Below are positions 5,192-57,261 of a stretch of 64,000 nt of DNA, in pieces. Both the position numbers and the translations under genes were made by a program. Within the stretch, counting starts at the first letter, position 1. The number at the start of each line of letters is the position of its first letter. The notes below the pieces were generated by a model. That model worked only from the letters and a program-made list of their open reading frames with translations. It was not told where the DNA came from and did not search any database. The stretch lies in assembly GCA_023480735.1 (NCBI GenBank), contig JAMCXB010000011.1, forward strand, positions 30,169 to 94,168, read 5' to 3'. The stretch comes from Bacteroidota bacterium (GTDB lineage Bacteria > Bacteroidota > Ignavibacteria > Kryptoniales > JAKASW01).

Positions 5192-5238
5192 TTTTCTTCT
5201 CTCCAGTTTTTGGATTGATTTGTTATTCCCGCGGTTGT

Positions 5239-6591: not shown

Positions 6592-6597
6592 TTGAAA

Positions 6598-7890: not shown

Positions 7891-7953
7891 ATAAAAACTC
7901 CACGCGCCGTGCTTCTTAGGTGACGCTTGTAAGCGGGACTCTCAGGCGCCTGA

Positions 7954-23843: not shown

Positions 23844-23850
23844 GATAACC

Positions 23851-41253: not shown

Positions 41254-42711
41254 TTGCGGAGGTTTGTAGTGGCTTTGAAAGTAAATCAAAAGGCGGTCGA
41301 ACATCTGAGATCTCTGGTCAGCCAGGGAAAAGTCGATCGGAATTCTAACTGGAGTTTTTCAGCCGAGGATGGCAATGCCCTCCTTGGCGCGGCCGGCAGC
41401 GACTGGTCAAACTATTCCCAAAATCACTTAGCGGTAGATACCAGTGCTGCCGAGAATACTAAGGCGCGTTTCCATTATCCGGCGGGCAAGGACGGAAAGG
41501 TCTATCGTAGCGGAGTTATCGCGGCGAAGCAGAGAGCGGCGGCGCAGGGCGAGAAAGATATAGAGAACGCCGCGGACGATCTACTGCAGTTGATAGATCG
41601 CAAAGCGCAGAGCGCAAAGGGTGAAGTGAAAGCGAAGAGAGTGGTCTTCTGCCAGGTAGATTTAGGAGTAATAGCGGGAGACGAATTGCCGACCCGGATT
41701 AACCTCCTTCCGCTCGGCGAATGGAAGGGTTACCCTTCGGTTGATCAGAGTGGTAAACCCGTACTACTTTCTTTCAAAGTCACCCCGGATCGCGTAAAGC
41801 AAGCCATCGCTTACCTAAAGAGACTCAGGTCACGAAATTCAAACCTCGATCTCGTGATCGACAATGACCACTTAACTCACGCGGACACCTATGCGCCTGC
41901 CTTCGGTTGGATCAAAGATCTAATTGACGCGGGCGAGAAAGGACTGGACGCGGTGGTCGAGTGGACGGCGCTGGGTGCGGAAGCGTTGAAGAATAAACTC
42001 TACAGGTATATCTCGCCCGTGCTGGCGTTCGACCTGCCGGACAGCGCGACGGGAGAGATAATTCCCTTTGCCGTGACCGATGCGGGACTGACTAATCAAC
42101 CGTTTATAGAGTCTTTGCCTGCGGTAATGGCAAAGAAGATAATTGAAACAACAAACAACGCCCCGATGGGGCAAGGAGAAATCAAGATGGACAAAATCTT
42201 AGCACTGCTTCAGACGTGGCTTAAGCTCCCCGATGCGGCGACGCCGGACGAGGTGGCTACCGGTCTCGAGGCAAAACTAAAAGAAGAGAACGCCGAACCA
42301 GACGAGGTGCAGGCAAAGAAATTGCTTACCGTTATCGGCTTTGATGAGGGCACTACCGTTGAACAGGCCAAGGCCACCGTCATCATGGCAAAGCAGCACC
42401 AGAGCCAAACATTGAACGTCGCCCAGGAGCTGGCCGCGATGAAGGCCGCACAGCTCGAGCGGGACGTCAATGAATTAGTTGACGGTGCGATCCGCGAGGG
42501 GAAGGTGTTCCCTGTGAACCGCGAAGACTTCGTGGTGATGGCGAAAAAAGACTTCGCGGGGATCAAGACGTTCCTGTCCAAGGCGCCCGTCGTAGGTCCA
42601 TTGAATCCGATGCCGGCCGGCCGGGAGAGCGGCGGAGTAAAGGCTCCGAGCGACACCGACAAGGAGGTCGCGGCGGCGCTCGGCATAGATGCGGCGAAGA
42701 TGGTGGAATAA
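41254..42711 (+). CDS. Mu gpI-like head protease / scaffold protein
   Basis: 'INLLPLGEWKGYP', 'DLVIDNDHLTHADTYAPAFGWIKDL' and 'YISPVLAF' fit the Mu-like prophage I protein family. The Ala/Glu-rich C-terminal half is scaffold-like. Confidence 0.7.
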   Translation: MRRFVVALKVNQKAVEHLRSLVSQGKVDRNSNWSFSAEDGNALLGAAGSDWSNYSQNHLAVDTSAAENTKARFHYPAGKDGKVYRSGVIAAKQRAAAQGEKDIENAADDLLQLIDRKAQSAKGEVKAKRVVFCQVDLGVIAGDELPTRINLLPLGEWKGYPSVDQSGKPVLLSFKVTPDRVKQAIAYLKRLRSRNSNLDLVIDNDHLTHADTYAPAFGWIKDLIDAGEKGLDAVVEWTALGAEALKNKLYRYISPVLAFDLPDSATGEIIPFAVTDAGLTNQPFIESLPAVMAKKIIETTNNAPMGQGEIKMDKILALLQTWLKLPDAATPDEVATGLEAKLKEENAEPDEVQAKKLLTVIGFDEGTTVEQAKATVIMAKQHQSQTLNVAQELAAMKAAQLERDVNELVDGAIREGKVFPVNREDFVVMAKKDFAGIKTFLSKAPVVGPLNPMPAGRESGGVKAPSDTDKEVAAALGIDAAKMVE

Positions 42712-43278: not shown

Positions 43279-44289
43279 GTGAGGATGAAAGTGATTAAGA
43301 AAAGCTTAAAAGTAGTTATCGGGCTGGCGCTACTCGTCGGCACGATAGCGATTGTTAATTCGTGGACTGCCGCCTCTGGTATCAGTATGGCGCTGTTGAT
43401 CGGGCCGTCGACATCCGACTCGCTCTATCGCGGGTTCAAGGTAATTTTTAATGATGCGTTCAATAAAGCGCAGCCGAGTTATAATCGGATTGCGATGACG
43501 ATCCCGTCGAACACTAAGCAGGAAACCTATGCGTGGCTCGGCGCATTTCCGCGAATGAAAGAATGGATCGGGCCACGGAACGTCAAGAACTTAGCCGCGT
43601 CCGATTGGACAATTAAGAACAAGAAGTTCGAGGTCACGATCGAGATACCATCCGAGGACATCGAAGACGACACCTATAACCTGTTCAACCCCATGATCGG
43701 CGGAATGGGTATGAGTGCCAGGATGCATCCGGATGAGCTTGTGTTCTCGCTGCTCAATGCCGGCTTTACGCAGAAATGCTACGACGGCAAGAATTTCTTC
43801 GATACCACTCACGCGTTCGGCTCGAACAAGAGCACAAAAATATTAAACGCGACCTACTACGGGGCGGCACTTGCAGCGATTGGGCGCATTAAAGATTCGA
43901 CAGGCAATCCACTTTTTAACGGATCCGAAAAGCTTACACTCGTGACCGGGCCTGAACTGGAAGAAACCGCAAAGCAAATGTTGAATGCCGACTTTATTTC
44001 CGTTGGCGGCGGGTCGACGCAGAATAACGTCTGGAAGGGCACCGCGGATTACCTGAAGAGTCCGCAGGTCACCAGCCCGACAGCGTGGTTCATTATCGTG
44101 GACTTTATGGGATTGCGTCCGCTGATCTTTCAAGAACGGAAGGCACCGAGATTTATTACGAAGAATAACCCGCAGGATTCCGACTACGTATTTATGAACG
44201 ATAAATACGTTTACGGCGTAGATTCGCGGGACAACGCCGGCTACGGGCTGCCGCAATTGGCCTACGGTTCCGACGGAACGGTGGCGTGA
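43279..44289 (+). CDS. Major capsid protein (Mu gpT family)
   Basis: 'ETYAWLGAFPRMKEWIGPRNVKNLAASDWTIKNKKFEVTIEIPSEDIEDDTYNLF' matches the Mu-like gpT signature. The start is uncertain (43279, 43285 or 43387). Confidence 0.8.
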   Translation: MRMKVIKKSLKVVIGLALLVGTIAIVNSWTAASGISMALLIGPSTSDSLYRGFKVIFNDAFNKAQPSYNRIAMTIPSNTKQETYAWLGAFPRMKEWIGPRNVKNLAASDWTIKNKKFEVTIEIPSEDIEDDTYNLFNPMIGGMGMSARMHPDELVFSLLNAGFTQKCYDGKNFFDTTHAFGSNKSTKILNATYYGAALAAIGRIKDSTGNPLFNGSEKLTLVTGPELEETAKQMLNADFISVGGGSTQNNVWKGTADYLKSPQVTSPTAWFIIVDFMGLRPLIFQERKAPRFITKNNPQDSDYVFMNDKYVYGVDSRDNAGYGLPQLAYGSDGTVA

Positions 44290-44445: not shown

Positions 44446-44898
44446 ATGTATAGTACCTACGCAGACATCGCCGTTAAGCGGATTTCGTTGGCTGACTTAC
44501 AGCAACTGCTCTGCGACGACCCGGCGAATCCATTCACCGATGTGCAGCTTCAAGCGGCTGTCGAAGCACTGATACCCGACGCTGATTCGATGATCGACAG
44601 TTACGCGACAAGATGGTACGTCGTCCCGATGGACCCGATTCCGGCGATAGTAAAAAAGTCCAGCGCAGACATGGTGTGTCACTCGATCTACCAGCGGCGC
44701 CCGTTTCTTTTCGAAGGCGCTGCAAAGACCTGGGCGGATGCCTACACCGCGGCAATGTCGTGGCTGAAGGACATTGCGGCGGGTAAGGCTATAATCGAGG
44801 GCGCGTCGCGGAAACTCCCGGCGACCACTCCGAATTCAGGAGGTGTCGTTATATCGACCGATCCGACGTTCACTAAAGACAGTTTGAAAGGGCTTTGA
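44446..44898 (+). CDS. Mu gp36-like head-tail connector protein (DUF1320)
   Basis: 'YADIAVKRISLADLQQLLCDD...AVEALIPDADSMIDSYATRWYVVPM' follows the DUF1320 pattern. Confidence 0.55.
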   Translation: MYSTYADIAVKRISLADLQQLLCDDPANPFTDVQLQAAVEALIPDADSMIDSYATRWYVVPMDPIPAIVKKSSADMVCHSIYQRRPFLFEGAAKTWADAYTAAMSWLKDIAAGKAIIEGASRKLPATTPNSGGVVISTDPTFTKDSLKGL

Positions 44899-44937: not shown

Positions 44938-45468
44938 ATGCCGGCTGATCCATTAATGGAGGTGAACGGCAGACTGGCGGCGATACTGCAAAATGCGGTG
45001 AATCTACGGCCGCTGTATGAGGAGATCGGGATGTTCTTAGTTGGCGTCGTTCGACAGAACTTCATCGCCCAGGGACGACCGGAGAGATGGGCGGCGTCAG
45101 TGCGCGCGAAGGTAACTGGCGGCCAGACGCTTAGGGACACTGGAGCTTTAATGAACTCTATTGTTTCTGAATCAACAGACAAAGGCGTCAATGTCGGGCC
45201 GAGCGGTCCGGCGGGAAAGTATGCAGCCGTGATGGGTGAAGGCGCAACGATTACGGCGAAGAACGCGCCCTACCTCACATTCCGCATGCCTATAGGGATG
45301 CGCAGAACGAACAAGACTGGTAAAGATCTGAAGAAACCGGCGGCAAGTTACGGCTGGTTTCGTGTCAAAAGTGTTACGATCCCCGCAAGGCCGTACCTCT
45401 ATATTCCACCGGCCGAGGAAGATAAGGTGGCACAGATTGCCGCAGACTTTTTGCGAGGCGAAAAGTGA
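44938..45468 (+). CDS. Phage virion morphogenesis protein (Mu G-like)
   Basis: 'LRPLYEEIGMFLVGVVRQNFIAQGRPERW...GQTLRDTGALMNSI...VGPSGPAGKYAAVM' follows the Mu G / tail-completion family pattern. Confidence 0.55.
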   Translation: MPADPLMEVNGRLAAILQNAVNLRPLYEEIGMFLVGVVRQNFIAQGRPERWAASVRAKVTGGQTLRDTGALMNSIVSESTDKGVNVGPSGPAGKYAAVMGEGATITAKNAPYLTFRMPIGMRRTNKTGKDLKKPAASYGWFRVKSVTIPARPYLYIPPAEEDKVAQIAADFLRGEK

Positions 45469-45896
45469 TCAACCTCTCGCTGCCCGAAGACGCGATCATA
45501 GGCGCAATTAAAACCGCGGCGCCGTACGCGCGAACCGTGGATACACACGCAGGTCAAATTGATGCATCCGTGTTCGCCGGTGCGGATGGGTTAATTACCC
45601 TCGCTCCGTTCGCGCTTATTGAGTTTAGCAGAATTGAACCTGTCGTGGTTGACAATGAGGGCGCGGTCATCAGGGCTAACCTGGAGTTTAACGTGTTCGT
45701 CGGGGACAGGAGCCTGCGCTCGGCGAAAGAGGCGAGTCGTGGAGCTTACGGTCTTATCAACGATATAGACGCCGCGCTTAACGGTAAAATGCTCGGCGGA
45801 TACAATGTTGGGCTTACGGGCTTAACGATAATTTTGCATCAACGTGGTATTGTTATCTATCAGGCGACATACAGTCTTTTTTCAGTTTTAATTTAA
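45465..45896 (+). CDS. Mu gp37-like protein (DUF1834-like)
   Basis: Called from its position after the G-like gene and from 'ANLEFNVFVGDRSLRSAKEASRGAYGLINDIDAALNG'. Confidence 0.4.
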   Translation: MINLSLPEDAIIGAIKTAAPYARTVDTHAGQIDASVFAGADGLITLAPFALIEFSRIEPVVVDNEGAVIRANLEFNVFVGDRSLRSAKEASRGAYGLINDIDAALNGKMLGGYNVGLTGLTIILHQRGIVIYQATYSLFSVLI

Positions 45897-45908
45897 CAGG
45901 AGAATAAT

Positions 45909-46385
45909 ATGGGACTCGACAAAACAAAAGTATACGCGGACATCTATGAGGTATTTATCGCGGCACGCGTATCACCAGACACGCAGGTGGCGCAGCCTAC
46001 GCAAGCGACTCTCGACGCGTACGGTGACGCGACGTGGAAACATGTCGGGATGATGGCGGAGAAAAGCCCCTCAGGCGGCTCGACGCCGAACACGAATGTC
46101 CTGCATGATGGTACAGCGAAACAACTGAATCAGGTGTGGAAGCTTCAGCTTGACGCCGTCCAGACCGACGCAGCTAACATCACCTTACTCGAATCATTTC
46201 TGGATACCTACAATGATGCGATTTTCCGAGTCCGCGGCAGCAGCCGGGCGTATCGGTTCGACCGATGTTCCGTGACGACTTCGTACAAACACGGCGATTC
46301 CAAGACCGCAAACGCGGTCACTGTGACGTTCGAGAAGATCTCGAAGAATATCTCCGACGGACGGACAGAAATAACACTCGTTTAA
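45909..46385 (+). CDS. Putative major tail (tube) protein
   Basis: 158 aa with a strong RBS (AGGAGA). It sits after the head-tail joining genes and before the chaperone and tape measure genes. It is a paralogue of the N-terminus of the DGR target. Confidence 0.45.
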   Translation: MGLDKTKVYADIYEVFIAARVSPDTQVAQPTQATLDAYGDATWKHVGMMAEKSPSGGSTPNTNVLHDGTAKQLNQVWKLQLDAVQTDAANITLLESFLDTYNDAIFRVRGSSRAYRFDRCSVTTSYKHGDSKTANAVTVTFEKISKNISDGRTEITLV

Positions 46386-46395
46386 GGAGGTTAAC

Positions 46396-46683
46396 ATGAC
46401 TGACACAGAGTATACGCTTCTCGGTAAGTTGACGGAAGCGGAGGCAGAGGCGTCGCAATTAGAAGGCAAACTCCGCAGCGACGCGGAGGAACTTAAAACG
46501 GCCATTGAATCCACCCAAGCGGCATTCTTCACGGATAATCCGAGTGGGATCGGAAACATGGCGGCAACCTTGGTATCAAATATCGCCGTCCTGCAAACAG
46601 CGAGGACGTCCGCGGCGACGTTGCGGGCGCAACTTTATCCGCCACCGGCCGACCCCACGGCGGCAACGACTGGAGTAGTGTGA
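46396..46683 (+). CDS. Hypothetical coiled-coil tail-module protein
   Basis: 95-aa ORF following AAGGAGG. Confidence 0.3.
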   Translation: MTDTEYTLLGKLTEAEAEASQLEGKLRSDAEELKTAIESTQAAFFTDNPSGIGNMAATLVSNIAVLQTARTSAATLRAQLYPPPADPTAATTGVV

Positions 46684-46684
46684 C

Positions 46685-48124
46685 ATGATTTCGCGACAAA
46701 AGGTTTTTTCGGGACGTATAAAAAAGGTAATTATCCACGACCCGAGTTCACCAGGCACGCAGATCGAACTTGGCGCACTTGCGGACACACAGACGATCAC
46801 GGCTGAGAGCGACGGAGTTTTGTTTCACGATGGCACCGCAAAGCAAGTGCAGGCGCGGGTGAACGCGCAACTCAAGCTACTGCAGACCTCAGCCGGTGAT
46901 GTTACAAACTACGAGACCCTACAAGGTAAAGGGTGCGACATACTTATCGCCGGGGAAGAGAAAAATCTTGCGTTTTATGACGTGGACTTCACCTTAAAGC
47001 ACGACGCAGGTAATTCGAAGGATGCCAGCGCGGTAACGTTATCGTTCAGCGTTGCCACAAGGAAGGTTTCTGACGCCGCAGGAATTGTCTCGACTCTCAT
47101 CGCCGACAAGGACGGCAATTTAAACGAGATGGTATTCATCCCTCAATTCAACTGGGATCCAACGAACGGGTTCGCCTCAACGATAATTCATCCCGCATTT
47201 GTGGTCGATGGCAAGAGAATCGCGGGCTTCTACGTCGGAAAATATCAAGCGTGCTTGGTCGATGCTCTTGGGGTCATCCAAAACCCGGTCACGGCGCGGA
47301 ACACCGATGCACTCATTACGGCTTCGGGGCTTCGCGCGTTCTCGCGAAGACTGGTCGAACCGCAGGTCAATATCGACTTCGATAGAGCGCGCCTAGCTTG
47401 CTCGCAAATGAATGGTGGAAACGTAAGCGGCTATCATTTAGTAACAAACGCCGAATGGGCGGCCGTGGCGTTGTGGTTCAAACAAAATATTACAACCCCA
47501 CCGCGCGGGAATAACAATAATAATTTCGGTGATTCGGATGATGGTACGGTTATCGGGACTGCGGCGCTAAACTCCGACGCCGGGAAGCGCTGGCTGACCG
47601 GCAGTGGTGGAAACGCGACGGCACACAACAGGCGAAGCTCTGGGATATTCGACCTGAACGGCAACGTCTGGGAATGGTGCGACGGGATAAAATTGGTGGA
47701 CGGTAAGATTCTCGTGGCGGGCAACAAAAATCTCGCGCCGACTGACGGCGGCAACGGCTTCGGAATAACCGAGGCCAACTATTACGATACGGGATGGTGG
47801 TACAACTGGGACGGCGTGTCCGCGGCACCTACACTGAGTAATGTTGGTGCTGGCACAGCTGGTGTAAAGGATTGTGCATTCGGCGACATGGCGGGCGGCG
47901 GAAGTGACCTGATTAAGAAGTTGACGCTCGGTCCACTCGCGGGAGGAGCGGCTGCTTACACGAACGACCATTTTTGGGTGAATAATTCTGGCGAGCGGAT
48001 TCCGATCCGCGGTGGCGCCTGGGGCGTTGGGTCCAGCGCCGGTTTGTTCGCGCTGTACCTGAGGGATCCGCGCTCCGGCGTGGACTACAGCATCGGTTTC
48101 CGTCCCGCTTTTATACGGACATAA
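46685..48124 (+). CDS. DGR target protein: tube-protein-like N-terminal domain plus C-terminal FGE-sulfatase / C-type-lectin-fold domain carrying the VR
   Basis: 'GYHLVTNAEWAAVALW', 'GNVWEWCDG' and the C-terminal '...RGGAWGVGSSAGLFALYLRDPRSGVDYSIGFRPA' have CLec/FGE-type architecture. The last ~37 codons are the VR. Confidence 0.85.
   Translation: MISRQKVFSGRIKKVIIHDPSSPGTQIELGALADTQTITAESDGVLFHDGTAKQVQARVNAQLKLLQTSAGDVTNYETLQGKGCDILIAGEEKNLAFYDVDFTLKHDAGNSKDASAVTLSFSVATRKVSDAAGIVSTLIADKDGNLNEMVFIPQFNWDPTNGFASTIIHPAFVVDGKRIAGFYVGKYQACLVDALGVIQNPVTARNTDALITASGLRAFSRRLVEPQVNIDFDRARLACSQMNGGNVSGYHLVTNAEWAAVALWFKQNITTPPRGNNNNNFGDSDDGTVIGTAALNSDAGKRWLTGSGGNATAHNRRSSGIFDLNGNVWEWCDGIKLVDGKILVAGNKNLAPTDGGNGFGITEANYYDTGWWYNWDGVSAAPTLSNVGAGTAGVKDCAFGDMAGGGSDLIKKLTLGPLAGGAAAYTNDHFWVNNSGERIPIRGGAWGVGSSAGLFALYLRDPRSGVDYSIGFRPAFIRT
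47999..48109 (+). repeat. DGR variable repeat (VR)
   Basis: It aligns without gaps to 48367-48477 over 111 nt. I count 15 mismatches, 14 of them opposite TR adenines. Confidence 0.9.
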
Positions 48125-48132
48125 AACACTCG

Positions 48133-48351
48133 ATGCTCACCTTACTGCAACTCATAGTCCGTGCGAACAAGAGTCGATCTAAGTCGCAGTTTTTCGACGC
48201 GATCGACGTTGAATTAGATACACTACGGATTCTTGTCCGCCTTTCAATGCAACTAAAATTCTTGTCATTCAAAAAATACGAAGTCTGGTCGCAATATCTT
48301 GTCGAAATCGGCAAGATGCACGGCGGCTGGATTAAAAGTGTAAAGGGATAG
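48133..48351 (+). CDS. avd: Avd-like accessory variability determinant, unusually short (72 aa)
   Basis: It occupies the position between VR and TR. The helical, basic protein ends 'YLVEIGKMHGGWIKSVKG' and resembles the C-terminal half of four-helix-bundle Avd proteins. Confidence 0.5.
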   Translation: MLTLLQLIVRANKSRSKSQFFDAIDVELDTLRILVRLSMQLKFLSFKKYEVWSQYLVEIGKMHGGWIKSVKG

Positions 48352-48366
48352 AGTCGTATGTGGCAG

Positions 48367-48477
48367 ATTCCGATCCGCGGTGGCAACTGGGACAATGGGT
48401 CCAACGCCGGTTTGTTCGCGCTGAACCTGAATAATCCGCGCTCCAACGTGAACAACAACATCGGTTTCCGTCCCGCT
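48367..48477 (+). repeat. DGR template repeat (TR)
   Basis: It is rich in AAC/AAT (aac tgg gac aat ggg tcc aac ... aac ctg aat aat ... aac gtg aac aac aac) and is the invariant counterpart of the VR. ORF 48358-48630 over it is not considered coding. Confidence 0.9.
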
Positions 48478-48622
48478 CTCGATTTTGCCAGATGCCGTCA
48501 ACTCATCGGGTTGGCGGCCAGTGCATTTACAAAAGGGATTCTATTCCTCTCCGAAAGGAGAAATAGTCCGACTTGGGCTGGCCTCTTACGGGTCCCGAAA
48601 GGGATTGGTCGGAGGCGATACT
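48478..48622 (+). ncRNA. DGR spacer RNA region between TR and RT (part of the TR-containing template/primer RNA)
   Basis: 145-nt segment between the TR and the RT start codon, with hairpins such as CTATTCCTCTCC-gaaa-GGAGAAATAG. This position corresponds to the Sp region of characterised DGR RNAs. Confidence 0.4.
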
Positions 48623-49600
48623 GTGTTTAAACAGATTTATAGCTTCGAAAATCTTTATGACGCATACAAGAAGGCTTCACGAAACAAACGTTATGAATTA
48701 GAAGCCTTAAGGTTTAGGCAGAACTTAGAGGAGAACTTAATCGTAATTCAGAATGAACTTATTTGGAAAAAGTGGACGCCGAGGGCGTTCACATCCTTCT
48801 TCGTCTGCGACCCCAAGAAGCGTCTTGTAATGGCTCCAGCTTTCCGGGACCGAGTGGCGCATCACGCGCTTTGTAATATAATCGAGCCTCTGTTCGAGAG
48901 GCGTTTTATATTCGACAGTTATGCTTGTCGTGTAGGTAAGGGAACGCATGCGGCTGTTCGCCGCGCCTCGCAAATGGCAATCCGCGATGGGTATGTTCTG
49001 AAGGCCGACATATCAAAATATTTTCCATCCGTGAGTAACGAGGTTTTAATGGGTGTGATCAGGCAGACAGTCAATAATTCGGACACGCTCTGGCTTATCG
49101 AGCGCATCTTGGCGATAACAGAAGGACTTCCTATTGGTGCACTTACGTCGCAATTATTCGCAAATGTGTATTTAGATCAACTCGATCACTATTTAAAGGA
49201 TGAATTAGGAGTGAAACGTTACGTAAGGTATATGGACGACTTTGTAATCTTTCACGAAGACAAAAATTATCTACGCGAATTGCTCGAGATCATCCGTGAC
49301 TTCTTGTTGACTAAGTTGAAATTATCGTTTAACCACAAGACCCAGATATTACCCTCCCGGCACGGGCTGGATTTTTGCGGTTACAGATTATTTGAAACAC
49401 ATATAAAGATGAGGAAGAGAAATGTGAGGCGGGCAAAAAATAGATTTAAGCAACTCAGTGCAGACTACGCCAACGGTGCAATTTCCTTGGCGCAAGTTAG
49501 GTCGTGCGCGATGTCTTTTCTCGGCTATGCCGGCCACACGAACGAAAAGCGGAGCGTAGAAAGCACACTTAATCGCTTGAACCTTGCAACCGGAGAATAA
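48623..49600 (+). CDS. DGR reverse transcriptase
   Basis: GTG at 48623 follows GGAGG. It has 'FRDRVAHHAL', 'LKADISKYFPSV', 'LPIGALTSQLFANVYL' (DGR-type SQ motif) and 'YVRYMDDFVIF' (YxDD box). Confidence 0.9.
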   Translation: MFKQIYSFENLYDAYKKASRNKRYELEALRFRQNLEENLIVIQNELIWKKWTPRAFTSFFVCDPKKRLVMAPAFRDRVAHHALCNIIEPLFERRFIFDSYACRVGKGTHAAVRRASQMAIRDGYVLKADISKYFPSVSNEVLMGVIRQTVNNSDTLWLIERILAITEGLPIGALTSQLFANVYLDQLDHYLKDELGVKRYVRYMDDFVIFHEDKNYLRELLEIIRDFLLTKLKLSFNHKTQILPSRHGLDFCGYRLFETHIKMRKRNVRRAKNRFKQLSADYANGAISLAQVRSCAMSFLGYAGHTNEKRSVESTLNRLNLATGE

Positions 49601-49601
49601 T

Positions 49602-50126
49602 GTGGAAGAAGACCAAAAAAAATACGCGATCGGACGTAGAAAGTATACCCTTGGAAAACTAACGTGGGCACAGTACAAGGCTATCCGCAAGATCGGAAAG
49701 TTGATACAATTACCGCTTGAAGCAACCGTCTCCGATAGTGAGCACGTGATTGCGGTGGCGCTCAATGTCATGGACGTGATCGTTCAAAAGGACGTCGTCG
49801 CGGAGCTGCTCGCTGCCATTTTGTCGCGGCAAGGAAGTGATTGGAAGCCACTGCCGAAGTGGTTAGCGAGACGGCGGTTTGCAAAAATCAAAGAGGATAC
49901 CCTCGCGGAGATTCTGAAGGATTTTTTTACGCAAAGTCCATCCGCGACGCTTACGTTGATGGCCTCTTCAAAGAACTTAGCGCCGCTGATGCAAAGTATG
50001 ATGACGACCTTGAGTCAGAGTTCAATCGCATCGGGCGTCCAAGACCCGATGAATTCTACCGCCCCGACATCGACGCAGACGAGCTCCTCGAAATCAGAAT
50101 CGCAGACGGCAAGCCAAGCGAAATAA
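49602..50126 (+). CDS. Tail assembly chaperone (lambda gpG analogue)
   Basis: It lies immediately upstream of the tape measure gene. GTG at 49602 follows GGAG. It contains the T7 slippery run leading into the overlapping -1 ORF. Confidence 0.5.
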   Translation: MEEDQKKYAIGRRKYTLGKLTWAQYKAIRKIGKLIQLPLEATVSDSEHVIAVALNVMDVIVQKDVVAELLAAILSRQGSDWKPLPKWLARRRFAKIKEDTLAEILKDFFTQSPSATLTLMASSKNLAPLMQSMMTTLSQSSIASGVQDPMNSTAPTSTQTSSSKSESQTASQAK

Positions 50127-50248
50127 GTAGACTACAAACTATGTACGTTCTTGACGTTTTTAAACTCGCATACATCCAGAGAGTCGATGCGTTGAACGCA
50201 AAAATAAATCTCGTCAACGACCTAAAGAACATTCCCGACCCGCAATGA
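49841..50248 (+). CDS. -1 frame extension of the tail assembly chaperone (gpT-like part of the GT fusion)
   Basis: The overlapping ORF is in the -1 frame relative to 49602-50126 and ends 4 nt into the tape measure gene. It has the canonical G/GT arrangement. Confidence 0.45.
   Translation: MEATAEVVSETAVCKNQRGYPRGDSEGFFYAKSIRDAYVDGLFKELSAADAKYDDDLESEFNRIGRPRPDEFYRPDIDADELLEIRIADGKPSEISRLQTMYVLDVFKLAYIQRVDALNAKINLVNDLKNIPDPQ
49922..49928 (+). other. Slippery heptamer T TTT TTT for the -1 frameshift (G to GT product)
   Basis: The zero frame reads gaT TTT TTT acg (..KDFFTQ..). The -1 frame reads ttt ttt tac gca aag (..FFYAKSIRDAY..) and stays open to 50248. Confidence 0.5.
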
Positions 50249-52746
50249 GTGACAAAGACTATAAATTAATTTTCTCGATCGACTTGGCGCCTTACGTCGA
50301 TGGACTGAAGGCAATGTTAAACATGACCCGCGAGGCATCGCAGCAACTCTCGGGTCTCCTCAGTCTGAAAATAACCACTCCGAACTTCTCGGGCATCGAT
50401 GCCGAGCTGCAGCGCGTCACGCAAACGACCGACGCATACATCGCTAGCCAGCAGGGTGCTGCGGCGGCAAGTCAAAAGACAGCCGAGAGCGAGGCGCAGG
50501 TCGAGAAGTCCTCGGTCGCGATGGCGGGTGGGATGAAGACAGCACAAGTATCGACGACGGGCTTCCGCGAAGCGAGCGAGGCGCTGTTCTTCAGACTAAG
50601 TGCATTAAGCATCGGTATGCAGGCGCTAAAGGGGACGTTTGGGGAATGGATACAAAAATCTAACGAGGCAACAGCGGCGGAGAGTGCCTACGCACAGGCA
50701 CTGAAGAACCGGGGAATATATACCGAGGAGGCGGTCAAAGACGCAAAAGAGTTTGCCGACCAACTGCAGAATTTAACCGGAGCCGACAACGACGTCGTAC
50801 TCAAGACCATGGCACAGTTGGCGGCGATGGGATTGCAGGGCGAGAAACTTAAAGAGGCCACGAAGTTGACGGCGGACCTTTCGATTTTAATGGGCCGCGA
50901 CATGGCGGGCGCAGCGCGTGTCATGGCGGATGCGTTCAACGGCAACACCGGTATGCTGGGGCGCTACATAAAGGGATTAGACGAGGCCGATATAAAGCAG
51001 CGCGGTGCGGTGTCCATCATTGAGCAGGTAAGGAGAGCGGTCGGTGGGCAGGGCGAAGCATTCGGGAGGGACACAGCGGGGCAACTCGAGATATATAAGC
51101 GTCAGGTTGATGACACGCAGAAGGTTTTAGGCAGGCTCCTCACCGAAGGGATCGTCCCGATCACGAACGCCGCGAAGCCATTTCTCCAGGCATTTCAGGA
51201 TGCCCCGGAACCGATTCGAGACACCGCCGCGGCGGTCGGGTTGCTCGGTATCGGCATCGGAGTTTTGAAGATCGGCATGGGTGTAGATATTCCCGCAGCC
51301 GCAGCCAGGGCTGCCGCGGCTCTCTATACAACGCTCATCCCCGCGGTGGAAGCGGCAGGGACGGCAGTTGTTGTTGCGACGGGCGGTTTATCTCTCATCG
51401 CGGGGGAACTTGTTTATTTAGCTAAAATTATTTATGACACATTTGAATTGAGATCGAAGGCAGCTAAGGCGGAGCTTGCCTCGGACGCTAAGTCTATCGC
51501 AGACACCTACGCTGCGGAGATCGACCGGATCTCGAAGTTACCACCGGCGAAAGCAAAGGTCGAATGGGTTTGGGAGATGCAAGATCTCGACAAGCAGATC
51601 GCTGCGGTACAAGAGCGCATACACACTTTAAATGCGAAGGGCGTGACGAGCGGGAAGGATATAGATGAGCTCAAGACGAAACTAAAAGCGTTAATCGACG
51701 CATACGAAAACCTCAAGAAGCTGCCTGCCACAATCGCCGAGAACGAGAAGAAGGCGGCGAAGGCGCAATTAGAAAATCTTGACAACCTAATCACAACGGA
51801 CACCGCGTACCGGCAGAAGCTCGATGAGATCAACGCCGCACTAAAAATCACGACGCTCTCGGAGCGTGAGCGGAACGAACTCCTGAAGCAGCGTGCGGAC
51901 ATCGAGGCGAAATTAGCGGGTCCGGAGAAGTACAAGCCATTCCAGGGCAAAGCTGAAGTAGCGCCTTTAACAATCACGACGCCGGATCTGTCGGCAAAAC
52001 TCGAAGAGGCTGGAATGTCCATTGCGGACGAGGAGGCAAAAATCGCGTCCATCGAGGACGCCTACCGGAATGCGAAAACGGACAAAGAGCGTGCGGCGGC
52101 ATACGAACAACTGCAGATCGAAAAGCAAAAGCTTGATGCGATCGAATCGATGCAGAGGCAGCACGACCAGGATTACGACAACTGGAGGCGGATAAAAGAG
52201 GAGGCGTGGAATGCAGCGGAACGGGCGGGAGCGGGCGCGACGGCGGGTTATTTTGTGAGAGCTTTTGATGAGGCGTGGACGAAAGCATTCGGGCAGGCAC
52301 ATTCGCTGCTGCAAAGATTTTTGCATGATGTTCTGTCCGCACTGGTACAAATCGCTGCGCAGGAAGCCGCTATGGCGGTGTTTGGATTTATTGCTAATCT
52401 AGCGACCGGAGGTGCGTACAGCGCAGGAGCGAACTTACTGTCGACGGTCTCACATCTCGGTTTACCTGCCCACGCTGAGGGCGGAATAACGACGAAACCC
52501 CACGTTGCGTTCGTTGGTGAAGTGCCGGAAGTGATAATGCCGCTGTCGAAACTGCCAGTATACATGCCTATGTTTGCCAACAGGGATGATTCCGCGATAA
52601 TCGGACGGCTAGACAGACTCGAGAGGGCGATACTTGGACTGCCTGCGCCGGTTGTGGAGCTGCATAATCACGCCGAGTTTAATGAGGTCGCGTTCCGGAC
52701 CAAAATAGTGGAATACAAACGAGGGGAGCAACGGCGTGTCGGCTAA
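50245..52746 (+). CDS. Tail tape measure protein
   Basis: 833 aa, Ala-rich and helical. 'LQNLTGADNDVVLKTMAQLAAMGLQGEKLKEATKLTADLSILMGRDMAGAARVMADAFNG' is a TMP core motif. It also has TM-like Gly/Ala segments. Confidence 0.85.
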   Translation: MSDKDYKLIFSIDLAPYVDGLKAMLNMTREASQQLSGLLSLKITTPNFSGIDAELQRVTQTTDAYIASQQGAAAASQKTAESEAQVEKSSVAMAGGMKTAQVSTTGFREASEALFFRLSALSIGMQALKGTFGEWIQKSNEATAAESAYAQALKNRGIYTEEAVKDAKEFADQLQNLTGADNDVVLKTMAQLAAMGLQGEKLKEATKLTADLSILMGRDMAGAARVMADAFNGNTGMLGRYIKGLDEADIKQRGAVSIIEQVRRAVGGQGEAFGRDTAGQLEIYKRQVDDTQKVLGRLLTEGIVPITNAAKPFLQAFQDAPEPIRDTAAAVGLLGIGIGVLKIGMGVDIPAAAARAAAALYTTLIPAVEAAGTAVVVATGGLSLIAGELVYLAKIIYDTFELRSKAAKAELASDAKSIADTYAAEIDRISKLPPAKAKVEWVWEMQDLDKQIAAVQERIHTLNAKGVTSGKDIDELKTKLKALIDAYENLKKLPATIAENEKKAAKAQLENLDNLITTDTAYRQKLDEINAALKITTLSERERNELLKQRADIEAKLAGPEKYKPFQGKAEVAPLTITTPDLSAKLEEAGMSIADEEAKIASIEDAYRNAKTDKERAAAYEQLQIEKQKLDAIESMQRQHDQDYDNWRRIKEEAWNAAERAGAGATAGYFVRAFDEAWTKAFGQAHSLLQRFLHDVLSALVQIAAQEAAMAVFGFIANLATGGAYSAGANLLSTVSHLGLPAHAEGGITTKPHVAFVGEVPEVIMPLSKLPVYMPMFANRDDSAIIGRLDRLERAILGLPAPVVELHNHAEFNEVAFRTKIVEYKRGEQRRVG

Positions 52747-53932
52747 GAGACAGATTGTCGCCTACAGTGTTGACAGCAATGCGCCCGAGCAAATAGATTT
52801 TACGTCCGAGCTCGCCGAGGTGGGTTGGGCGGAGTTGCAGGTCGAACGTGACCAATACGAGTTCTCTGGCGGCGACGCCAAATTTACCGTTAAGGATGAT
52901 CATGGGCTTTACGGCTTGTTGAAGGATCGGCGGCAACTGAAGGTAGATGTTATCTTCGACGATAATCTAATTTACAGAGGGGTGGCGTACGCGGACCAGA
53001 CCACGTGGGACCCGGCTGCTCAAAAGTATATGTTCAATTCATACCAACTGACGAAGCCGTTCCGAGACGCGGCAAAGAAGCAGCTCGTCAACGTCGGCGC
53101 GCTCAATTTACAAAGCGTCCTCGTTAATTCTGGACTTGTCTCGTCGGTTCTTGGCAACCTGAAGGACGCCCCACTTATCATCAAGCAGGATTTTACAAAG
53201 CAAGATGGCACGACGTTGAAGAATGGCAGCTTGACGGACTTTGCGAAAGAGTATAACTATTCGGTTTATGATTTTCTTCTCGACGCAATGAAATACAATT
53301 CGGGTGCGTACTGGATCGATAACGAAGGCGTCCTTCACGTTGGGCGTCGGTATGTCGTCAACACGTACACGTCGGGATTGGACGATCGCATCGTTGAATA
53401 TAAAGAAACGTTGAGAGAGAGTAGCTTCGATTGGATTACAGTCTCGGTGAATGACGGCGGATCTTTCTACTCCGCGATCGCGCTCGGACGGCAGGGTGAG
53501 CTTTGGTATCGTATATACACAATTATCGCCACGTCTGGCGTGCGGCTGCGAGATTTTGGTGAGACACGATATGGCGCGGGGTGGATGCGGCAATTTGTCT
53601 GGAAGGACAGTAAGAGCCGTAACATCATGGCATCACTTCAGGGCAATATATTGAACGTCGACGCGCCGAGCGTATATCCGCAAGGCGGAGTACTCTTCTT
53701 CCCGATGCGTAGCACGAAGGAAGCGGTCGATAACCTGTCGCCGATTCTGGCAACCGCGACACAGAAGCGGGTGAAGCTCAGTGAGATCATCCAACTGAAT
53801 CCGCTTGACGGCATCGTACTCCGCGGCACGAATAACGTCATAACCGGAGTACTTTACAACCTCGCCGAGGAGTCGACGACGGTGACGCTCGAGGATTTCA
53901 ACACGACGCAATACCCGAACCCGTTTGGATGA
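52736..53932 (+). CDS. Putative distal tail protein
   Basis: It is the first ORF after the tape measure and overlaps its stop. Confidence 0.35.
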   Translation: MSAKRQIVAYSVDSNAPEQIDFTSELAEVGWAELQVERDQYEFSGGDAKFTVKDDHGLYGLLKDRRQLKVDVIFDDNLIYRGVAYADQTTWDPAAQKYMFNSYQLTKPFRDAAKKQLVNVGALNLQSVLVNSGLVSSVLGNLKDAPLIIKQDFTKQDGTTLKNGSLTDFAKEYNYSVYDFLLDAMKYNSGAYWIDNEGVLHVGRRYVVNTYTSGLDDRIVEYKETLRESSFDWITVSVNDGGSFYSAIALGRQGELWYRIYTIIATSGVRLRDFGETRYGAGWMRQFVWKDSKSRNIMASLQGNILNVDAPSVYPQGGVLFFPMRSTKEAVDNLSPILATATQKRVKLSEIIQLNPLDGIVLRGTNNVITGVLYNLAEESTTVTLEDFNTTQYPNPFG

Positions 53933-54882
53933 TCATGGGCCAGCCGAAAGTTACATATAACCTGATGGGACAGGGTTTCACGTTAAGCTTCGAGTCCTTA
54001 CATTATTCGAGTCTCAAACAGGGTTGGAAGCCGGATATTGTCGAGTTCACGAATCCGTTTAATGGCAAAAAAACACGCAATCGGCGCGGGTGGTACTATC
54101 ATGCAGAGATTTTTTACGAGGCGATAAAGGACACGGACTTCTTGTTACTTAGAGATTTATTCAACAAAAACACAACAAATACTGTCTTCTACCCGGACGA
54201 CATTGAGGTTAGAAAGTTTCCGTGCGACGTACAAGTGGTCGGGTTGGACTTTGAGGACTTGTATCCCGATCACGAAAAAGGCGTAAGGATCACTTTCGAT
54301 TCACTAGATCGTTATGATTCCGCGCTTGACTATCCGACCAATTATTGGGGATGCAGAACTTTACGTTTCCAGGACGATGTCACGTGGAGCGGGCATAAGG
54401 ACGCACTGAACCTGGCGGACTCAAACGATCTCGCGTCCTTTAACACCCTTAACACAAACTTCGGAAACCATCTTGCGGCGGCGAATCCGCATGGAGCGAC
54501 CTACTACACAAAAGCGGAAGTCGATTCGTTGATAGTTAGCAAGATTAAGTATGCCCCGATTGTCCTCGCGGCGAATCTGACCGGGGCGGGAGATTTCTTT
54601 AATAGTCAGGGCGGATTTATAACCTACACGATCACCGGTTGCGACAAGCCGATTCCGCGAGATGGGTCATTGGTCGCGCTCACAAGTCGTGTCGGCACGG
54701 TCTTGCAATCAGACGCCCTGAATATAAGTGTTAAAGCGGGAGACCGACTTGCGGCGTTCAGCATCTACGACACCGCGCTCAGAATATACATCCTCGTGAA
54801 TAAAGTCCAGGCATACAAACAAACCGTTGCGGGCGCGACAGTACCCAACCTAGCTGTGCTTATGATCGATCTAAAACTGTGA
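53929..54882 (+). CDS. Tail tip/baseplate-associated protein
   Basis: Called by position. It shares the motif 'H..TYYTKAEVD' with the next ORF. Confidence 0.3.
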   Translation: MIMGQPKVTYNLMGQGFTLSFESLHYSSLKQGWKPDIVEFTNPFNGKKTRNRRGWYYHAEIFYEAIKDTDFLLLRDLFNKNTTNTVFYPDDIEVRKFPCDVQVVGLDFEDLYPDHEKGVRITFDSLDRYDSALDYPTNYWGCRTLRFQDDVTWSGHKDALNLADSNDLASFNTLNTNFGNHLAAANPHGATYYTKAEVDSLIVSKIKYAPIVLAANLTGAGDFFNSQGGFITYTITGCDKPIPRDGSLVALTSRVGTVLQSDALNISVKAGDRLAAFSIYDTALRIYILVNKVQAYKQTVAGATVPNLAVLMIDLKL

Positions 54883-54883
54883 G

Positions 54884-55438
54884 GTGTTTATGGCAATAAT
54901 TATTCAAACCGTTAGCCCCGAAGACCTAATTGATCAGGGACGCACGAAATTCAACTCGAACGACACCGCTGTGGCGAACGCGGTAACCGCCACGCAAACC
55001 CAATTGGACACGCATAACCATAACTCTATTTACTATACAAAACCTGAGGTGGATGCCAAAGTCAATCCGTCCGACCAAGGACAAAAGAAATCTTATATTG
55101 AGTTTGGTGTCAACGCTTCAAACCAGACTCTCGTAGCTGGAGTCGTTGTTGACACCATCCCGCTCGGACGTGCGGGCAGCGTGACGGGATTAAGGGCGGC
55201 GCATAGTAGTGGCAGTAAATACAATGTTGATTACGGTTACGGCATAAAGACATTTCTCGCGGGCGATTACCTAACATTATCGTTTAACAATACGATACCC
55301 GGGGACGAAGTGACTCCGTTGCAGTGGGGTTTTATACTCTCACTTGTACGCGGAGGTGTTACGCAGTCGCAGGTCATTGTCGTGACCAAAGAGAGCGCGG
55401 GGCCGTTTGCGGTCTCCGTTGAGTTAGAGTTCTCATGA
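54884..55438 (+). CDS. Tail fibre-associated protein
   Basis: Called by position. It has the motif 'HNHNSIYYTKPEVD'. Confidence 0.3.
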   Translation: MFMAIIIQTVSPEDLIDQGRTKFNSNDTAVANAVTATQTQLDTHNHNSIYYTKPEVDAKVNPSDQGQKKSYIEFGVNASNQTLVAGVVVDTIPLGRAGSVTGLRAAHSSGSKYNVDYGYGIKTFLAGDYLTLSFNNTIPGDEVTPLQWGFILSLVRGGVTQSQVIVVTKESAGPFAVSVELEFS

Positions 55439-57261
55439 TAGGTACGGAGCGCGAAGCAGATAAGTCGTATATCGTATTCCAAGGGAAGCGAATTCTATCC
55501 GTGGATGATAACGGCGCTATTGCACTCGACCCGTCGGTGCGGCTACCGCAACTACGACTGAAATCCACAATGATTGAGCCGACTTTTCTCAGCGACACGG
55601 TTATTGAAGGCAACCTTTGGATGGAGGGATCGGGAATCGCGCGCATCAAGAGGGTCGTGGCTAGCGAGACAACAACGCAGTTAATCGTCGAGACTGGGCA
55701 TGGACTAAAGGGGAACGATCTTATCCGCGCACGCGCGTTCTATTACGACGCCGCTGCTAATCGTCTCACGCGGTACGATGTTACAGCTACAGTACAGAGT
55801 GTTGCAGCCAGTGGCGATTTAACGGTTACAAATGTCTCCTCAATTACCGATCTAGTTAAATATCAGAAAGGTATGGAGTTCGTGCGAATCGGGAACACCA
55901 CTGATGTGACCCGCCAATCCGCGATACAGATGCGCACGGATACAACCTCGCCAAGGCTTACGGTGTACGGCGGGGTAAACTCTGTTGCAGCGCTCGATGA
56001 TATTAGTAAGATGCGGGTCGTGTTCGGCGGCCTCGATGGTCTAACCGATCCCGACTTCGGCGCGCTGGCCGGGTTTGGTATGTATGCTCAAGACAACATC
56101 TACCTTAAGGGCGCACTAATCACCAAGGCGGGGTCGATAGTTGACGGCGGGTATCTTATTGATTCAACCGTCGTATCAAAAAAAATCACCGCCGCCTCGC
56201 GCGGGATGACGACGGATATATTTTTTTCTTCGGTAAATGACGCCACCGTTCAATGGACTGCCGGGCATATTAAGCTTGCAGGAACCACAGGGGCAGGCTA
56301 TCCGATTTCAGCAGGACAAGTGGGTGGGTTGACAACCACAACAACCTACCTTTATTGTAATTTCGCGGGCGGCATTATGGCAACGACTGATCAGTCTGTC
56401 GCCACGTCGGAAGAGTCTGTGGTGCTCTGTCTCGTTAGATCGGCAATGACTGCCGGGGCTGGTGTTGTGATAATTCCAACGGCTGGCATCGCGGATATTG
56501 CAAGCACGAGCTGGATCCATGCCACATACGCATCGTTCGACTACGTAAACACAAGTTTTATTTATGTCGGCGGAGCGGCTGGCGACGTGAACAGTGGCGT
56601 GACGACCATTAATGGAGGAAAGATAACAACAGGCACGATTGCGTTGAGCCAGTTAAACTTTACACCGGTGCAAACGAGTGATGTGGTCGCAAAGATAAAC
56701 GCAAGCGCGGAAGGCTTAACGATAGACGCCGCAAGGTTAAATCTCACAGGCGTCCTTGCGGTGGGTGGCGCGGCTGGTGACGTGAACAGTGGCGTGACGA
56801 CGATTAACGGTGGAAAGATAACGGCGGGAACAATTACGTCTCTCGGCGCGGTTACGGCAGGAACGTTCAACCTTGGAAGTGGGAAGTTTAGTGTCGATGT
56901 AAATGGTTACTTGATGGCGACGGGGGTAAACATATCAGGGACAATTACCGATAGCACGCTGACTACCGGCAGCGGTTATCCCTATGAGGTTAACGTTGGG
57001 CATGGGACAATTACCTTCACCGAAATCGCCACTGGGGTCACGGGAACCGTTGCCTTCGGAAGTAACCTCGACCTATCGACAAGTAATGTGAACTACAAGG
57101 TGACAGTAGGCGGTAACGAAATTTGGCATGCTGGTAATGATCCGCTGGGTAAGGGTGGCACGATTAGTTTCACGGACGCCAATGCGGACAACTGGGCGAT
57201 TACATTCTCTAAGGGGCGTTGTACGAGCGCAAAGAAAAACGGTACAGAGCAGTTAACATGA
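55435..57261 (+). CDS. Tail fibre / receptor-binding-like protein with an internal 65-aa repeat
   Basis: 608 aa, Gly/Thr-rich, the last large ORF of the tail module. It contains the duplicated 'VGGAAGDVNSGVTTINGGKIT(T/A)GTI'. Confidence 0.45.
   Translation: MIGTEREADKSYIVFQGKRILSVDDNGAIALDPSVRLPQLRLKSTMIEPTFLSDTVIEGNLWMEGSGIARIKRVVASETTTQLIVETGHGLKGNDLIRARAFYYDAAANRLTRYDVTATVQSVAASGDLTVTNVSSITDLVKYQKGMEFVRIGNTTDVTRQSAIQMRTDTTSPRLTVYGGVNSVAALDDISKMRVVFGGLDGLTDPDFGALAGFGMYAQDNIYLKGALITKAGSIVDGGYLIDSTVVSKKITAASRGMTTDIFFSSVNDATVQWTAGHIKLAGTTGAGYPISAGQVGGLTTTTTYLYCNFAGGIMATTDQSVATSEESVVLCLVRSAMTAGAGVVIIPTAGIADIASTSWIHATYASFDYVNTSFIYVGGAAGDVNSGVTTINGGKITTGTIALSQLNFTPVQTSDVVAKINASAEGLTIDAARLNLTGVLAVGGAAGDVNSGVTTINGGKITAGTITSLGAVTAGTFNLGSGKFSVDVNGYLMATGVNISGTITDSTLTTGSGYPYEVNVGHGTITFTEIATGVTGTVAFGSNLDLSTSNVNYKVTVGGNEIWHAGNDPLGKGGTISFTDANADNWAITFSKGRCTSAKKNGTEQLT
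56566..56640 (+). repeat. Tail-fibre internal direct repeat, copy 1
   Basis: gtcggcggagcggctggcgacgtgaacagtggcgtgacgaccattaatggaggaaagataacaacaggcacgatt. Confidence 0.7.
56761..56835 (+). repeat. Tail-fibre internal direct repeat, copy 2
   Basis: gtgggtggcgcggctggtgacgtgaacagtggcgtgacgacgattaacggtggaaagataacggcgggaacaatt, offset by 195 nt (65 codons) from copy 1. Confidence 0.7.

Follow-up and report, generated by a model that had tools for sequence, protein, structure and literature searches.

A paralogue of the tail tube protein as the putative carrier of a retroelement-diversified lectin in a Mu-like prophage

Introduction

Where on the virion does a phage display the variable protein of its diversity-generating retroelement (DGR)? 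The usual assumption, modelled on Mtd of phage BPP-1, is that phage DGR targets are tail fibres. The question is raised by a 64,000-nucleotide stretch of contig JAMCXB010000011.1 from a Bacteroidota bacterium (hereafter the window), in which a Mu-like prophage encodes a 158-aa protein, called X here, and a little further downstream a 479-aa DGR target whose N-terminus resembles X. A preliminary description of this DNA had proposed that X is the tail tube protein and that the target is its paralogue, with a diversified domain displayed on the tail. The analysis presented here leads to a similar answer: X is identified as the major tube protein, and the target is likely to be an accessory tube subunit that displays a DGR-diversified lectin on the tail tube. 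Full-text literature searches that paired DGRs with the tail tube or the major tail protein turned up no account of a tube-anchored target. The genes and domains in question are the following.

45909-46385, plus strand: X, predicted 158-aa major tail (tube) protein, from its AF2 fold, Foldseek matches and position
46396-46683, plus strand: 95-aa open reading frame (ORF), no match in Pfam or PHROG
46685-48124, plus strand: DGR target, 479 aa
46685-47089, plus strand: target residues 1 to ~135, putative tube-like N-domain, an X paralogue without X residues ~29-45
47060-48124, plus strand: target residues ~126-479, TaqVP-like C-type-lectin (CLec) module of the FGE-sulfatase subtype, carrying the variable repeat
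47995-48109, plus strand: variable repeat (VR), a 115-nt repeat, target residues ~438-475
48133-48351, plus strand: Avd, N-terminally truncated, 72 aa, matching bAvd profile positions 37-107 only
48363-48477, plus strand: template repeat (TR)
48485-49600, plus strand: DGR reverse transcriptase (RT), Pfam RVT_1, E=2.4e-18

Homology between X and the target

BLASTP aligns X residues 64-150 with target residues 46-130 (87 aa, 32% identical, E=1e-10). Within this stretch the heptapeptide HDGTAKQ is identical in the two proteins, as the preliminary description had pointed out. MAFFT carries the correspondence from residue 1 (KVYAD-IYEVFIAARVSPDTQV versus KVFSGRIKKVIIHDPSSPGTQI) through to a K(N/V)(I/V)SD motif near the end of X, the sole large gap being a 17-residue insertion in X at about residues 29-45. 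As a guard against circularity, an independent profile was built from 10 stand-alone relatives of X with no window sequence included, and it matches target residues 15-134 over 120 columns (hhalign probability 91%, E=9.5e-7). The alignment claimed earlier for the first ~130 aa of the target is thus significant by both routes. Among the ORFs of the window a family HMM picks out just X and the target; its match to the target N-domain reaches E=2.4e-32, though the HMM contains that sequence. At the level of sequence the paralogy of X and the target N-domain is real, and the N-domain would share the tube fold of X by virtue of this homology.

The two proteins are the products of separate genes that lie ~300 nt apart and are ~30% identical, and the target frame is closed by an in-frame stop 9 nt upstream of its ATG. 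A programmed frameshift joining the 95-aa ORF to the target was rejected on account of this stop, and also because the frame from one gene to the next varies between loci of this type, being +1 in the window and in a related locus (L009) and -1 in another (L002). In a neighbour-joining tree the N-domains of fused proteins separate from the clade of stand-alone proteins. The window target N-domain is closest to that of the fused protein P0003 (32% identity), as against 26% to its own X and 21% to the fused N-domains of P0143 and P0144; with identities so mixed, the tree does not separate one ancient duplication from repeated duplications.

Fold and position of X

X itself has no match in Pfam, PHROGs or PDB sequences. 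A sequence-profile search of the PDB with the X family yielded chance-level matches only, a word-index homologue search returned X itself only (and nothing when started from the target N-domain), tblastn with X had no match among 50,697 phage records, and locus searches with X or the family alignments found no relatives in IMG/VR or GTDB genomes. Relatives were obtained when a profile made from X and the target N-domain was run exhaustively with HMMER against 1.84 billion cluster representatives. The family so defined is small: ~20 of its members, 152-170 aa long, stand alone, and a few longer ones have the domain at the N-terminus. Weak matches to PF25681 (Phage_TTP_17, E=0.0022) and to phrog_117 (E=0.0075) occur in two and one of 24 family members, respectively. 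X is the founding member here of a small uncurated family.

The AF2 model of X based on the 24-sequence family alignment has a pLDDT of 85.6 and a pTM of 0.75 (an earlier run on a 4-sequence alignment, with a pLDDT of 55, was discarded). It consists of strands 13-19, 55-64, 70-83, 102-108, 113-127 and 136-145 and a helix at 88-96, and it displays the hallmarks of the tail-tube/Hcp fold: a beta-sandwich, one flanking helix and a long beta-hairpin. Comparison with tail-tube structures agrees with the earlier assignment of X. Nearly all Foldseek matches of the model in the PDB are tail-tube or Hcp proteins, with five matches at E<1e-3; they include the tubes of mycobacteriophage Douge and of Bxb1, the Sf11 tail, the YDC107 tail core, the lambda tube (8k36), the monocin and T1 tubes, and Hcp of the type VI secretion system. 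In BFVD there are 63 matches at E<1e-3, many of which are labelled major tail protein.

Gene order places X at the site of a major tail protein, as had been argued from synteny. Mu Gp36-, gpG- and Gp37-like genes lie on its 5' side and a G/G-T chaperone pair and tape measure gene on its 3' side:

44446-44898, plus strand: Mu Gp36-like head-tail joining protein, Pfam PF07030, E=2.9e-20
44938-45468, plus strand: Phage_tail_S / Mu gpG-like virion morphogenesis protein, Pfam PF05069, E=6.9e-13
45465-45896, plus strand: Mu Gp37-like protein at the neck/terminator position, Pfam PF08873, E=2.5e-7
49584-50248, plus strand: G / G-T tail assembly chaperone pair, overlapping ORFs in frames 0 and -1
50245-52746, plus strand: tape measure protein, 833 aa, from phrog_1272 (E=2.5e-4) plus position

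The same order is found in two related loci (L006 and L044), and Gp37-like homologues stand directly 5' of X homologues in L004, L006 and L003. The two chaperone ORFs occupy 49584-50126 (G) and 49841-50248 (the -1 frame, ending G-T). At 49922-49928 a slippery heptamer, T TTT TTT, has the phase needed for slipping by -1 out of the G ORF into the second, and the -1 reading past it continues as YAKSIRDAY. The N-terminus of the tape measure protein resembles by eye the protein that follows the chaperone in L004, with no significant match by BLAST. Since a sheath gene is absent, the tail is of the siphovirus type. Fold and gene position together identify X as the major tail tube protein of a Mu-like siphovirus prophage.

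A side observation concerns the start of X. A 35-nt direct repeat of 77% identity covers the ribosome-binding site and start of X (45895-45929, AACAGGAGAATAATATGG...) and those of the G chaperone (49588-49622, AACCGGAGAATAATGTGG...), and therefore brackets the entire block from X to RT. It may reflect chance or a shared translation signal.

The lectin module and the DGR cassette

Beyond its ~135-residue tube-like anchor, the target consists of a complete TaqVP-type lectin. Residues 126-349 match TaqVP (PDB 5VF4, E=1.4e-27), Pfam assigns PF03781 (the FGE-sulfatase/CLec domain), and phrog_2889 covers residues 108-478 (E=6.9e-66). No chain of Mtd is found among the PDB matches to the target at E<=1, in line with the earlier suggestion that this target departs from the Mtd type. 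[quoted passage not shown] Among 120 relatives of the lectin module, the N-termini include fibre-like repeats, signal peptides or nothing at all; it is the anchor, not the lectin, that decides the location of the module.

The DGR of the window is real. VR and TR are 86% identical, and 15 of their 16 mismatches fall at TR adenines. All 15 adenine mismatches are at codon positions 1-2, and the lone non-adenine mismatch is at position 3. VR occupies the 3' end of the target gene and leaves 15 nt to the stop codon; Avd starts 8 nt after that stop; and the RT ORF, whose translation contains YMDD and SQLFANVYL motifs, begins 8 nt past TR. The full cassette of target, Avd, TR and RT thus lies between X and the G/G-T genes, where the preliminary description had placed it, and VR has clearly been diversified in the past.

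Avd of the window aligns to residues 40-111 of the 135-aa Avd of L002 at 50% identity and falls short of a full-length Avd, a four-helix bundle of ~107-135 aa; upstream of it no coding potential is seen in any frame. Downstream of VR there is no GC-rich hairpin, and an AT-rich 6-nt inverted repeat is present instead (48109-48126). Such a GC-rich hairpin is known to be required in BPP-1, though not in all DGRs. The idea of a "programmable" lectin surface put forward in the preliminary description is weakened, for this particular copy, by the truncation of Avd.

The G+C content of Avd and RT is 0.43-0.46, compared with 0.51-0.57 in the surrounding structural genes, and the target resembles the backbone. 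The lower values are consistent with a mobile cassette, and together with the truncated Avd they would suit an explanation in which the N-terminal similarity is the remnant of a duplication or recombination that brought in the DGR cassette, with no structural role and a target that is not a virion protein. This we consider very improbable. The target itself has a backbone-like G+C content and lies within the structural operon, with 1 nt between its start codon and the stop codon of the 95-aa gene; it retains a complete domain; the fused architecture is kept across loci whose N-domains share merely ~20-30% identity; and selection maintains the identity of a motif within genomes, as described below.

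A hairpin tip shared within genomes

HDGTAKQ lies at the turn of the long hairpin of the X model (strands 55-64 and 70-83). This turn is the most conserved site of the family, and G68 is invariant. The sequence of the hairpin tip varies between genomes and matches within each genome's pair: HDGTAKQ in X and the target of the window, LQDGSEQQL in P0135 and P0144 (L003), and EHLQDGTP(K/N)Q in P0129 and its fused neighbour (L006). Recent gene conversion as the origin of the shared HDGTAKQ was rejected, since five of its seven codons differ synonymously between X and the target. The L003 pair has synonymous differences as well, so in the window and L003 pairs it is selection that keeps the shared tip. 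The L006 pair is nearly identical in DNA, so that recent gene conversion is possible there.

In the solved siphophage tubes (lambda gpV, SPP1 gp17.1 and T5 pb6) the long hairpin makes inter-ring contacts. The co-variation of the tip within genomes speaks for a common partner of the two proteins in a single virion. On the simplest view, the contact made by X is also made by the fused protein, within the same particle.

Recurrence at related loci

Fusion of a tube-like N-domain to a CLec module is found at three loci, the window and two others from metagenomes. In L009 an X homologue (P0134) is followed by a 103-aa gene and a 483-aa fusion protein (P0004). An 11.5-kb contig and L002 carry a 160-aa gene, a 96-aa gene, a 446-aa fusion protein (P0143), a 135-aa Avd and RT, and all 20 of their 20 VR/TR mismatches are at adenines. 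A small gene of 95-103 aa occupies the same site in all three (L002 38-328; L009 565-876). By eye the three products have a helical look and a Pro/Thr/Ser-rich tail, which in the window is C-terminal and Pro/Thr-rich. The stop of the window gene lies 1 nt before the target ATG; the 96-aa copy in L002 is weakly similar to that of the window (E=4e-6), and the 103-aa copy in L009 is alike by position and composition only. The small gene is absent between X and the fused gene at the loci with laminin-G (LamG)-type fusions described next. Its product could be a chaperone or linker for the lectin-bearing subunit.

Other loci present the same arrangement with different outer domains. In L006 and L007, genes for Gp36, Phage_tail_S, a Gp37-like protein and the X homologue P0129 precede a 664-aa fused protein with a tube-like N-terminus (hhalign E=3.6e-17) and C-terminal Laminin_G_3/CBM_4_9 domains. 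In L003 and L044, a Gp37-like gene is followed by the stand-alone paralogues P0125 and P0135, the 659-aa fused protein P0144, a chaperone and an 896-aa tape measure protein, so that three tube paralogues of 162, 160 and 659 aa stand in tandem (L003 359-3421; L044 408-3470). In all four loci the fused protein precedes the chaperone and tape measure genes. L044 is also of interest for what follows the tape measure: only a 504-aa (Ig-like) and a 135-aa protein are encoded before apparent host genes (4420-9032). Given this small tip module, the main adhesin of L044 could be its decorated tube paralogue.

Fusion is not the only form. In L040 (8625-10053) a 124-aa tube-like gene abuts a separate 350-aa CLec DGR target in a different frame, with 1 nt between them, and the gene break coincides exactly with the domain junction of the fused proteins; this could be a natural gene fission, recoding or an assembly error. 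Two more tube-like proteins of 137 and 293 aa are encoded side by side further downstream, ahead of the tape measure (12758-14064). L004 (752-1816) has two stand-alone tube paralogues that are 48% identical, the second of 170 aa, followed by chaperone and tape measure and with no fused form. An unrelated HK97-type siphophage (L039, 6859-10239) encodes a major tail protein of the Phage_tube_2 type and next to it a 387-aa paralogue (E=2e-8), then P0007, a homologous CLec protein, before its chaperones and tape measure; no RT is visible within this 17-kb locus. In the short contigs L042 and L043 no second family member is seen beside X. Overall, of the nine loci with a visible downstream region, seven contain a further tube paralogue (adjacent in six), and six have a tube-like paralogue fused to or abutting a binding-type domain. 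The tandem paralogues suggest heteromeric or specialised tube rings.

These loci also bear on which of the two proteins builds the tube. Both contain a tube domain, and a fully decorated tube is possible, as lambda gpV and T5 pb6 attest; the 479-aa protein might therefore be the true major tube protein, with every subunit decorated as in lambda gpV, and X a minor tube-like component, for instance a terminator or adaptor. Such an exchange of roles seems unlikely to us. Stand-alone X-type proteins outnumber fused ones by ~20:5 among the representatives, L004 has two stand-alone tube genes and no fused form before its chaperone and tape measure, and X occurs without a second family member in L042 and L043, albeit on short contigs. 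The C-terminal domain of the fused form is interchangeable and, in L040, even split off, the mark of an accessory, and the terminator position is already filled by the Gp37-like protein. From L004, with stand-alone forms only, and from L042 and L043 it appears instead that X is the essential tube protein and the fused form an accessory one.

The target as a probable accessory tube subunit

The explanation that we prefer, and regard as likely, is an accessory subunit on an X tube. The N-domain of the target, as a diverged copy of X, would dock into or stack onto the tube of X through the same contacts. The C-terminal ~350 residues, a monomeric TaqVP-type lectin module, would project outward, and adenine-specific mutagenic retrohoming from TR, by way of the adjacent RT, would rewrite their ligand-binding face (VR, ~438-475). 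On its tube the virion would thus have an adhesin open to diversification, either scattered among X subunits or confined to one dedicated ring, in addition to the conventional tip apparatus encoded 3' of the tape measure.

Several points weigh against this proposal. The structural similarity of X to known tubes is clear in kind but modest in degree, with TM-scores of 0.4-0.57 in the PDB and up to 0.68 in BFVD, and X reaches no curated tube family of Pfam or PHROG at threshold. All five fused N-domains are without the loop of ~17 residues between beta1 and beta2 (X ~29-45) that is present in most stand-alone members, which means that one surface or more is different and that the two proteins may not co-polymerise freely. 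The pair in L009 shares only the DGT of the hairpin tip. With a truncated Avd and no GC-rich hairpin after VR, this copy of the DGR may be inactive and the prophage defective. Lastly, incorporation of the target into the virion, its outward display and its part in adhesion or host recognition are steps that we infer.

The missing loop also enters an alternative in which the fused protein builds a single specialised ring at one end of the tube, beside the distal tail protein as an initiator or adaptor or else beneath the terminator as a cap. The lectin would then be held at a fixed position much like a receptor-binding protein of the tip, instead of decorating the length of the tube. Retention of the cognate hairpin tip with loss of the beta1-beta2 loop is expected if one stacking face was kept and the other altered. 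Two or three tube paralogues occur in tandem at several loci (L003/L044, L004 and L040), contractile systems have tube-like initiator proteins, and in L044, with so little encoded after its tape measure, a fused paralogue could be the main adhesin. The target gene of the window, however, sits with the tube gene 5' of the chaperones, away from the tip genes that follow the tape measure, and the window has a separate tip module of four proteins (398, 317, 184 and 608 aa; 52736-57261). A ring at the tube end is possible, if rather doubtful.

A broader view of the accessory subunit can be offered tentatively. In a lineage of Mu-like siphophages and in some unrelated ones, a paralogous tube subunit might serve as a socket for interchangeable ligand-binding modules (DGR CLec, LamG and CBM), which are seen fused to it or as an abutting separate gene. 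The tube itself would then be a primary adsorption organ, programmable in its DGR versions, and the hairpin tip a specificity code that matches each adaptor to its own tube.

Prophage setting

A host gene that flanks the prophage has its nearest relatives, at 85-88% amino-acid identity, in metagenome-assembled genomes labelled Bacteroidetes, Kryptoniota and Ignavibacteriota, so the host is an uncultured bacterium of the FCB group. The Mu-like prophage spans ~21-58 kb of the window, in two divergent arms (21466-57261). The minus arm holds a ner-like gene, MuA, MuB, a 565-aa ORF and the portal; the plus arm holds a repressor-like HTH gene, lysis genes, protease I, gpT and the tail genes. Features in addition to those given above are listed here.

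22419-23870, minus strand: Mu portal
26372-28069, minus strand: 565-aa ORF, no match in Pfam
34835-36727, minus strand: MuA
minus strand: MuB-like AAA protein
plus strand: glucosaminidase
41254-42711, plus strand: Mu I protease
43279-44289, plus strand: gpT capsid protein
52736-57261: tip module, proteins of 398, 317, 184 and 608 aa

In Mu, all genes after c are transcribed in one direction, unlike the two divergent arms of the window. A divergent arrangement of Portal_Mu and Mu-like protease is also present in L040, and because of this shared layout the divergent arms look like a feature of the lineage and not a misassembly. The 608-aa protein of the tip module (55435-57261) has no family match and contains an internal repeat of ~20 residues, GGAAGDVNSGVTTINGGKIT, in two copies. 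It is probably a conventional tail fibre or central fibre.

Implications

One group of unannotated DGR-target N-termini is thereby identified as a putative copy of the phage's own tube protein, which would imply a different display site from the usual fibre. If this is true, it joins the weak accessory adhesion provided by tube decorations (the Ig-like domains of gpV and gp17.1*) with the reprogramming of binding by a DGR, and suggests that lateral tail adhesion is itself under diversifying selection. For annotation, a practical rule would be to seek a paralogue of the major tail protein fused to, or beside, the variable protein. A tube anchor with a monomeric CLec would also be a naturally modular scaffold for display engineering.

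Comparison with known systems

In the largest survey of DGRs, 71% of targets had nothing beyond the VR region that could be recognised as a domain, and viral targets were regarded as fibre-like (PMC8144416); the DGR target of the hankyphage has been termed a tail fibre (PMC12135933). Mtd itself is an obligate trimer with beta-prism and beta-sandwich N-terminal domains and is located at the ends of tail fibres (PMC6328139). Like Mtd, the window target has a C-terminal CLec domain with VR, an Avd-TR-RT cassette and adenine-specific changes; unlike it, the target has an N-terminus paralogous to a tube protein, and there is no sequence match between the two proteins. The closest solved relative of its lectin is TaqVP (5VF4), with the FGE-subtype CLec fold. 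TaqVP is a single domain of 385 aa, to which the window target adds a putative tube-like anchor of ~125 residues. Homologous CLec modules also occur beside RT in ORF35 of Vibrio phage VHML and in other members of phrog_2889. In VHML, a myovirus, the CLec gene belongs to the baseplate/fibre block, where it comes after a fragment of a P2 gpH-like fibre; the same lectin module is thus borne by a different anchor. A further topology is that of the tentaclins, in which an N-terminal CLec domain is followed by Ig domains (PMC10743442).

Tube proteins offer the other half of the comparison. In SPP1 (gp17.1/gp17.1*) and Listeria phage PSA (Tsh/Tsh-L), as may be the case in the window, a plain tube subunit is accompanied by a longer one with an outward binding-type domain. 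The long form in SPP1 and PSA is accessory, arises from the same gene by programmed frameshifting and adds an FN3/Ig-like domain. That of the window, by contrast, is a separate gene of ~30% identity with a closed frame and adds a DGR-diversified CLec; as two genes with the upstream frame closed, the pair falls outside the frameshift-extended class, which consists of a single recoded gene. Lambda gpV, T5 pb6 and the tube proteins of Bxb1 and Douge combine, as the target appears to do, a tube fold with a C-terminal surface decoration. In those phages all subunits are decorated and the decoration is invariant, whereas the window encodes a plain tube protein and a decorated paralogue. By analogy, the system of the window may thus work like a cross between the decorated tube proteins (gpV, gp17.1* and Tsh-L) and the variable proteins of DGRs (TaqVP and Mtd).

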